This document shows positions 4,773-10,424 of a stretch of DNA of 39,253 nucleotides, piece after piece. The DNA is from Eledone cirrhosa (lineage: Eukaryota): assembly GCA_964016885.1 (NCBI GenBank), contig CAXHJY010000393.1:1-39253 (forward strand), written 5' to 3'. Every line of letters starts with the position of its first letter. The stretch's first letter is position 1. The position numbers and the translations under genes were made by a program. A model generated the notes under the pieces. That model was given only the letters and a program-made list of their open reading frames with translations, searched no databases and was not told where the DNA came from.

Positions 4773-5307
4773 TATTTTTTTGACCGGCCACCTTCCTGGT
4801 GGCAAGGTTGTAAAAGAAAAGAAATTGTCATCCCTTGAATCTCAAGAATGTTTTGCAAATTTTGAAGGTGCCAGCTATCGCAACCATTTGTAGACTATGA
4901 ATTAGGGAGCTGCGCTCTTTGTCCGCAAATCAAAGTTCAGTCATACTTTGGTCCAAGCGGCTGGTATATAACCCGTAGCTCCAATAATGATGGGTATGAA
5001 GTTAAAGGTGTATCTTGGATACTAGATTTGTAAACTCCTCATCAATGGTCCTCCTTCTCCTGTATTTTTCTGACAACGTTTACATCAAGTGGGCAGCTGA
5101 TCTCCACAACAGAACACGTTTTGAATGTGTGGTTCCAAACAACAATATCAGGCCGGTTGTGCTTTAATTTGGTGGCAGTTTTTATTTTCAGGTTCCACCA
5201 GTATTCCTTAGTGCCATCTGTCTCAATATATTCTTCCTCGTTTGTTGTTAATTTTGTTTTCCGAAGTGCGTTCCAGATGGTTCTAGCTATCCCATCGTGT
5301 CTCATAA
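4773..5307 (-). mobile_element. 3' fragment of non-LTR retrotransposon with restriction-like endonuclease (R4/Dong-like), decayed
   Basis: Translates to RHD...KHNRPDIVVW...VVEISCP...KE (PD..(D/E)xK RLE). Continues after stop/frameshift as YPRYTFNFIPIIIGATG...LQMVAIAGTFKICKTFLRFKG* (stop 4828-4830), then a short 3' UTR and A-rich end. Confidence 0.85.
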
Positions 5308-5424
5308 TGTATGTATGTATGTATGTATGTATGTATGTATGTATGTATGTATGTATGTATGTATGTATGTATGTATGTATGTATGTATGTATGTATGTAT
5401 GTATGTATGTATGTATGTATGTAT
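5308..5424. repeat. (TATG)n microsatellite
   Basis: Direct reading; separates two head-to-head retroelement pieces. Confidence 0.95.
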
Positions 5425-5426
5425 AT

Positions 5427-5850
5427 GTCAGGTCACCAGTTGGTGCTACTGGTAACGTGTATCCCAGTACAACCTGTCTCATGGTCGGGTTGTGGGCGAC
5501 TAAACTGGCAACCCCACCAAGGTTTCTTGGTGAGGAGGGTGACTTTGGACATCCTGCAGGACTAAAAACAAAACCTGTCAAAGGGCAAAGGAGCTCTTAA
5601 CAGTCAATGGCCATCCAAAATCACCGGGAGAGATAACCTCTTAGCCTTTGTCAAGGCAGAATTCTAGGAGAAGGAAAACTCTGATATAACACCTGCAACC
5701 CTGATGGTATCCAATGATGTTGACTTGTTCTTCTTTTTGGTAAATATCATCCTGGTTAAGAGAAAGTCACACTTGTTCAGCGCATCGGTAGGGGTTCTCC
5801 TACATGGATATAAAATAGTGGCCGTACTCGAAAATGAGTTGGCAGTCACC
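5427..5850 (+). mobile_element. Non-autonomous bipartite RTE-derived element (family X), copy 1: longest 5' end, internal deletion
   Basis: Near-identical to 15404-15807 over the shared parts but lacks about 185 bp between ggttaagag and aaagtcacac; same 3' end ggcag(t/c)cacc + atgtatg. Confidence 0.8.
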
Positions 5851-9515: not shown

Positions 9516-10094
9516 CTTAATGTAAAAATGTAAACAAATGAATATATATATATATATAACTTAATGTAAAAATGTAAACAAATGAATATATATATAACTT
9601 AATGAATATAGAAATAATTATGAATAGGCAAAGTCGAAAATATGAACAACTGTGCCACAAAACCGATAAATTGATTTGAAAAATCTATTGAAGGCATTGA
9701 AGAGATTGCATATAGTTTGACAGTTCCGGACTCTAGATAAAGGTTTATTGTAAAAAGTGTAGGAATTAGGAGTATTATGATAGGAATAATTAAATGAAAA
9801 TAAATATATGAATATATATGTACATATATGTATATGTATATATATGTATATGTATATATGTATATATATATATATATGTATATGTATATATATATATATG
9901 TATATGTATATATATGTATATGGTTATATATATATATATATATATCTCCCCTTTCCGCTTGATGGCAGTGTGAGATTTCTCATTGAGACTGCTGGAATTT
10001 CAAATTTGGCGGTCATTCTAGCACGGAGGGGTACCATCGCTGAACATTAATATCGGTAAGGTTTTTTTTTTTTTATATTGATATTTGTCGGGCA

Positions 10095-10216
10095 TCCACT
10101 GATGATTTATAAGTGCCCACCTACATATATTCCTACGGACTATGTGTAGGCTTCTACATAACCTGGACATTATTTTCCCAATTTGTAGAAAACTTATAAT
10201 GAAACGATCGTTTGGA
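10095..10216 (+). ncRNA. Type I hammerhead ribozyme with long branched stem II
   Basis: Stem I UCCA/UGGA; CUGAUGA 10099-10105; stem II UUAUAAGU/ACUUAUAA; GAAA 10201-10204; palindromic stem III ACGAUCGU; GUU triplet (H17 at 10212). Confidence 0.8.
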
Positions 10217-10424
10217 AAGTGAGATGTATTTTAATTATGTCTCATATAAAATAATACAACTGGCTATCCGCAAAATACGTATAGTTAGCACCCCAAACCT
10301 ATAATTGGGATTATACTAAGGTATATCCTCATGTTTGTTGAGTGAGACGGAAGCCGGTCGGAGTATTGCTTAAAGCTTTCTCTGTTAATGTATTAAATAT
10401 ATATATATATATATATATATAAAG

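Follow-up and report, generated by a model that had tools for sequence, protein, structure and literature searches.

Whether a hammerhead RNA with a large branched domain in place of loop II can be a working ribozyme, and what kind of element carries it, is the question raised by a motif at positions 10095-10216 (+) of the window, the 39,253-nucleotide stretch of the Eledone cirrhosa genome analysed here. The initial annotation had described it as an intact hammerhead core bearing a 95-nt, two-hairpin insertion in stem II, located in a repeat related to Penelope-like elements (PLEs).

Architecture of the motif

Core positions were assigned using the general hammerhead position numbering and the NUH rule. 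Checked against the sequence, every quoted segment was found at its position, giving a complete type I hammerhead core with stem I open:

10090-10093 (+): conserved GGGC directly 5' of stem I, candidate pseudoknot partner
10095-10216 (+): type I hammerhead motif, equal to the family A majority (see below) at every position
10095-10098 (+): stem I 5' strand, 4 bp with 10213-10216
10099-10105 (+): core CUGAUGA, N7 being U, A or C across subfamilies
10106-10114 (+): stem II 5' strand, U10.1 followed by 8 bp, partner strand 10192-10200
10115-10119 (+): junction linker containing GCCC, candidate pseudoknot with GGGC 10090-10093
10120-10150 (+): hairpin 1 of the stem II domain, 10 bp including one G·U
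10152-10190 (+): hairpin 2 of the stem II domain, 7 bp with a 25-nt loop
10201-10212 (+): GAA core (10201-10203), 8-nt palindromic stem III (10204-10211) and N17

Stem III is indeed a perfect 8-nt palindrome, ACGAUCGU at 10204-10211, and the cut proposed 3' of 10212 agrees with N17 being U10212, in a GUU triplet. The 95-nt insertion has to be divided: its two hairpins are real, whereas 95 nt is the length of the whole domain between CUGAUGA and GAAA, composed of the U10106·U10200 opening, an 8-bp helix (10107-10114/10192-10199) and a 77-nt part (10115-10191) that replaces loop II and holds both hairpins. These place a predicted three-way junction atop the 8-bp helix, in line with the multi-way junction originally described. 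The word insertion also implied a direction of change, for which the clade, containing no short-stem sister family, offers no support; the domain may have been inserted or inherited.

Folding of the region was more stable than in 199 of 200 shuffles (z = -3.30), and a hammerhead descriptor returned one match in the window, against none in 200 Markov-simulated windows. An Rfam search of 9945-10396 gave no hammerhead match at E ≤ 10, a miss to be expected if loop II exceeds the length allowed by the models; among the 150 of 327 matches listed for the whole window, Rfam returned microsatellite noise and no hammerhead.

The host repeat

The host genome (3.0 Gb) is rich in (TA)n, and the motif lies in an island that had been described as (TA)n-bounded at about 9945-10395. 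The bounds stand, at 9945-10396, while the left edge proved to be the 5' truncation of a 723-bp repeat unit, here termed family A:

9945-10396 (+): 5'-truncated solo copy of the family A repeat, covering approximately positions 273-723 of the unit and flanked by (TA)n tracts
10054-10061 (+): donor-like cg/gtaagg, candidate, found in U·U subfamilies and absent from G-C subfamilies
10384-10396 (+): fixed 3' end of the element, lying 184 nt past the predicted cut

The island has 3,444 candidate copies in the genome, the best 40 scored being all 96-100% identical, and 30 family A loci (L001-L030) were retrieved for comparison. Copies share a common 3' end and vary in 5' extent; the full unit measures 723 bp and contains no long ORF. 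Head-to-tail junctions occur in nine of the 30 loci, mostly as a partial unit followed by a full one. Of the 35 3' ends matched in L001-L030, 28 continue into TA repeats, 6 into the next unit and 1 into other sequence. Family A thus displays the structural hallmarks of PLEs, namely pseudo-LTR-like partial tandems, 5' truncation and a fixed 3' end, and lacks the RT and GIY-YIG ORF of an autonomous PLE, having no long ORF; in its structure, that of non-coding tandem units each bearing a single type I hammerhead, it also resembles a non-LTR retrozyme. The host is a non-autonomous 723-bp unit, where the pLTR of a coding element had been assumed. The copy in the window is without the first ~272 bp and without a neighbouring unit, and differs from the majority at four positions, none in the hammerhead; being a truncated monomer with no neighbour, it is likely inert.

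The donor-like site, initially likened to those of intron-containing pLTRs, is present at 10054, but the intron is unsupported, GGTAAG being absent from the G-C subfamilies. Spliced joints were not seen in contigs from four runs of unrecorded type, which are unable to show ends or strand. Another donor-like site, close to the start of the unit, likewise lacks conservation. Folded as a circle, a whole unit (L008:1229-1951) gave -184.7 kcal/mol, compared with -150.0 ± 7.3 kcal/mol for 12 base shuffles.

Subfamilies and the length of stem II

A genome scan with a pattern in which stem I and the core were fixed, N17 was limited to U/A/C and the four central bases of stem III were free returned 2,730 intact motif matches, and none with a reversed control. 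The retrieved loci contain 117 motif matches, 89 of them distinct, falling into ~14 clusters across which all core positions and the NUH triplet (GUU, GUA or GUC) are kept. One sister family, ~78-83% identical and with 2,496 candidates, has the same architecture with a GUA triplet and a canonical G10.1-C11.1. At eight distinct loci a pair of hammerheads occurs with a spacing of 708-996 bp, and 23 extracted units measured 699-1030 bp. In a subfamily with units of ~990-1030 bp (L146, L147, L157, L170, L183, L187), ~260 bp of the 5' part of the unit is internally duplicated. Three longer hammerhead spacings (2.75-7.7 kb), considered as a possible coding element, were discarded, as their contents are unrelated or duplicated DNA with no PLE ORF. 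A metagenome scan with the motif pattern gave 0 matches.

Copies having the same ends as the motif and a shorter spacer numbered two with 8-38 nt and 41 with 54-84 nt, giving 43 shortened copies against 2,730 full-length ones; they represent scattered deletions, and no amplified shortened family was found among the copies with 8-38- and 54-84-nt spacers. For the stem III type of the motif alone, 6,554 sites had an 80-110-nt spacer (control 5) and 124 a 5-35-nt spacer (control 9), and a looser pattern with a 36-66-nt spacer gave 21,423 matches (control 1,372), of which the first 100 listed comprised, by eye, about one third an unrelated coding stretch that we take to be RTE/LINE and about one third palindromic middles. 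By the counts across these spacer classes, including that of 36-66 nt, stem II length is a continuum in the Eledone cirrhosa genome, with the motif at its long, branched end. An older family, F (L129, L136, L137, L140), has the same stem III palindrome with a 20-nt stem II and a U·U or U-A opening.

Covariation and selection

Covariation across genomic copies had been put forward as a check of the proposed structure, and compensatory changes were found among the homologues. Stem III is palindromic in 84 of the 89 distinct sequences, with GAUC (43, a count inflated by the search design), AAUU (35) and GGCC (6) as its middle bases, the last two having come from the free pattern. In an alignment of 31 representatives, chosen out of the 89, 94.6% of the cells of the proposed structure were paired, compared with 38.7-46.4% in slid controls. 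The structure included 65 double-changed cells, a total equalled by none of 500 shuffles, and eight co-varying pairs, a number that 38 of the 500 shuffles attained; kinship among the aligned sequences inflates these pairing measures with the exception of the co-varying-pair count. The stem II opening at 10.1-11.1 is U·U in 18 of the aligned sequences, G-C in 12 and G·U in one. In a 3'-flank tree of 29 of the 31 representatives (L176 and L178 dropped), two stem III double changes each map once, on separate branches, and the G-C/U·U switch also maps once; hairpin 1 changes several times, partly via G·U states.

The helices supported by covariation are stem III, the base and tip of stem II, and hairpin 1, which has changes on both sides in four of its ten pairs and pair-keeping one-sided changes in five. 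Hairpin 2 (97.7% paired, nearly invariant, with one double-changed cell) and most of stem II are uninformative because of their invariance, and stem I offers no covariation evidence since its invariance was imposed by the search pattern. The GGGC/GCCC pairing, present in 91.9% of cells with no double change, is a candidate stem I-stem II pseudoknot.

Because the palindrome has survived separate double changes affecting bases that are unable to pair within a monomer, the comparison points to selection acting on dimer pairing via stem III. Taken together, the aligned subfamilies argue that the branched stem II hammerhead is a real, selected RNA structure. Its two hairpins, which lie outside the catalytic core, are retained under selection, likely serving as a docking or protein-binding domain.

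Relationship to known hammerheads

Several traits of the motif have precedents: a long helix II, the U·U and a stem III palindrome are all known already, as are hammerhead repeats that are non-autonomous (PMC10085705, PMC6765202 and PMC13725137 among others). The premise of a short stem II as the norm among PLE hammerheads was partly wrong: in Schistosoma PLEs helix II is larger than usual, at 7-8 bp, and helix I measures 4-5 bp (Cervera and De la Pena, 2014; PMC4209133). Nor is the U·U an oddity, as the annotation had presented it, given that U..U opens stem II in 14 of the 26 Hydra-clade rows of File S2 in Craig et al. (2021; PMC8557442) and is also reported by Perreault (2011) and Cervera (2020; PMC7229834).

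Hydra-clade PLE hammerheads resemble the motif in being type I, with a mostly 4-7-bp stem I, a self-complementary AC..GU stem III, a U..U or G-C stem II opening, a position near the 3' end and (TA)n targets; they differ in a loop 2 of at most 10 nt, against 77 nt and two hairpins here, and the host unit here, unlike Hydra-clade PLEs, encodes no protein (Craig et al., 2021). The minimal hammerheads of metazoan PLEs share the 7-8-bp helix II, the 4-5-bp helix I, and the palindromic 15.2-16.2 and loop 3 for which dimer action was proposed; they diverge in the supplementary descriptor, which allows stem II 3-7 bp and loop 2 3-10 nt against the 77 nt found here, and in a highly conserved G10.1-C11.1, where the motif's subfamily has U·U (Cervera and De la Pena, 2014). 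Non-LTR retrozymes, with reported units of 51-972 bp, are likewise non-coding, tandem-forming repeats in which each unit carries a single type I hammerhead, and the axolotl HHR_Amex2 shares the U·U (PMC7229834; Li et al., 2026, bioRxiv 10.64898/2026.07.22.740005). Unlike them, family A, whose circular RNA is putative, is found mostly as scattered monomers with truncated 5' ends and as partial tandems within (TA)n, instead of in long arrays, and has a branched stem II.

Enlarged loops are present in Selaginella PLE-X hammerheads (35 and 29 nt, flagged as deviating), although these are under half of 77 nt and File S2 annotates no two-hairpin junction in them (PMC8557442); 35 nt is the longest PLE loop 2 in the literature compared. 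The discontinuous Clec2 hammerhead is also a natural hammerhead split by a long stretch, but it belongs to a mammalian mRNA 3' UTR, spans several hundred nt and is not mobile (PMC6765202). A branched-stem-II PLE hammerhead was not found in the literature compared, where PMC13725137 mentions variants with additional helices, nor was a branched 77-nt loop II found in print; a long-stem-II PLE variant in Lunse (2017) or Arkhipova (2017) is possible. The expectation that length-limited searches would miss such a motif is borne out by the loop 2 limits given above and by the core spacer of 7-17 nt used by Craig et al. (2021). The proposal of an expanded PLE-type hammerhead is supported and, by its sequence, the motif represents a new architecture among PLE hammerheads of the dimer type, carried by a retrozyme-like family that is non-autonomous.

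Coding PLEs and the search for a partner

The element carrying the motif has no protein, and its link to the Hydra clade is drawn from the hammerhead type and the (TA)n target. Many of the sites with an 80-110-nt spacer are hammerheads of families C and D, located downstream of RT and GIY-YIG ORFs whose proteins carry DKT and CxCX5C motifs and RWR (seen in D), in accordance with the Hydra-clade signature, given as RWK, DKT and CxCX5C with no CCHH (Craig et al., 2021); an assignment of both families to Neptune was dropped, since the motifs fit Hydra. These Hydra-type families, C (L086, L123-L126) and D (L118-L120), have 97-105-nt stem II domains and the same stem III as the motif, the domains being predicted to form long bulged hairpins and not branched structures. 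In family D, a stem I adjoining the core is not obvious.

Outside the core, no significant homology between families C-F and the motif's clade emerged in 68 comparisons: the one at 0/200 was a gappy AT-rich alignment and was rejected, and two others stood at 2-3/200. A short motif common to the element and to the region downstream of the C/D hammerheads is suggestive. Pfam gave a weak RVT_1 match in one of three proteins, and a search for protein homologues gave no match.

The window also contains, at 24999-27482 (+), a 5'-truncated, very young autonomous PLE with RT, a Cx4CxxC linker, GIY-YIG and a Neptune/Nematis-type motif; the best 150 scored of its 38,439 candidates were all 100% identical over 199 aa, and its copies show 1,217-aa ORFs and a tandem spacing of ~4.1 kb. 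Nothing is common to this coding PLE and the 723-bp unit, and no matches were found in L056-L085. Its 3' region includes a second hammerhead-like core (27707-27740, +) with an extra U, a 6-bp stem II, a non-palindromic stem III and an unclear stem I, identical in all seven copies compared. Other retroelement ORF fragments lie at 20508-21000 (-), 31300-32612 (+) and 5034-5600. Elsewhere, the minus strand of L050 holds three minimal hammerheads at 467-bp spacing, a conventional retrozyme-like array. The abundant, tandem-forming and TA-inserting family G (L086:1680-1940 and >20 other loci) contains a hammerhead-like stretch whose core is altered, and its last ~30 nt resemble the 3' end of the motif's element.

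Folding energies, mechanism and alternatives

In the calculated monomer an inactive rod (-33.6 kcal/mol), formed by pairing between the palindrome and the core, lies 6.4 kcal/mol below the hammerhead fold (-27.2 kcal/mol), and stem III has only 2 bp. The strand-swapped active dimer (-69.2 kcal/mol) lies below two monomers (-67.2 kcal/mol), as it also does in five other subfamilies at 37 °C, while an inactive two-molecule fold reaches -72.4 kcal/mol. On balance, we favour the view that the motif is probably the dimer-cleaving ribozyme of a non-autonomous, likely Penelope-like, retrozyme-like element, with a branched stem II and cutting after 10212 only when paired. According to this model, head-to-tail copies would be transcribed into a single RNA, two hammerheads would exchange strands via the 8-nt palindromes of stem III, and the paired copies would cut after N17 to release unit-length RNA, possibly circularised, which a (TA)n-targeting PLE RT/endonuclease, most likely of the Hydra clade, would copy back into the genome.

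Counting against dimer cleavage is the calculated best two-molecule fold, which is inactive, and the literature weighs on the same side: PLE hammerheads cleave poorly in vitro (PMC4209133), eight of nine retrozyme dimers were without cleavage (Li et al., 2026), and the hammerhead of the anole PLE depended on protein and could be dispensed with for in vitro insertion (Frangione, 2024). The fold might instead be selected as a structural or protein-binding handle, for RNA dimerisation or RT recruitment, with cleavage negligible or unneeded for mobility. That the anole mutants left insertion in vitro unaffected, with no RNA-seq ends at the site (Frangione, 2024), that many PLE and retrozyme motifs cleave weakly or not at all, and that calculation favours inactive folds all agree with this possibility, which we nevertheless consider rather unlikely: N7 and N17, the positions left unconstrained by catalysis, do vary (N17 among U, A and C, as the pattern required), 10.1-11.1 varies between two tolerated states, and the axolotl U·U type I motif cleaves, better as a dimer (PMC7229834).

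Cleavage by the monomer would be conceivable if the branched domain provided a GGGC/GCCC stem I-stem II pseudoknot of sufficient strength. Such pseudoknots activate natural hammerheads (Perreault, 2011) and both 4-mers are conserved amid varying neighbours; yet the four pairs show no double change, stem III of the monomer is merely 2 bp, and the conservation of the palindrome would be left without explanation, making this an improbable account. A dead relic, whose look was preserved only through recent amplification, would accord with substitution rates in family A that are alike, at ~1%, in the core, the stem II domain and the 3' flank, as in neutral copies. Pairs and palindrome are, however, kept via double changes between subfamilies ~20% apart, and shortened versions with 8-38- and 54-84-nt spacers founded no family; the covariation between subfamilies appears largely to refute a relic, which we deem very unlikely.

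Beyond the dimer-cleaving ribozyme that we favour, we tentatively advance, as a possibility, that the enlarged stem II is a functional three-way junction, docking stem I by the pseudoknot or binding the PLE RT, and that the motif is one member of a large, hidden group of PLE hammerheads whose stem II domains span 40-110 nt, comprising thousands of copies here in both coding and non-coding elements.

Implications

What hammerheads do in Penelope-like elements has yet to be settled, given their weak cleavage and the dispensability of one of them in vitro, and the natural subfamilies described here offer comparative evidence for dimer pairing under selection. As a branched stem II lies beyond a loop 2 limit of 10 nt, published searches for PLE hammerheads undercount them, and elements scored as lacking a hammerhead may merit re-examination. 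If the broader proposal is true, a class of long-stem-II hammerheads would have been missed by the published descriptors compared, and the functional stem II domain would constitute a natural, co-varying test system for the role of the hammerhead in Penelope retrotransposition.
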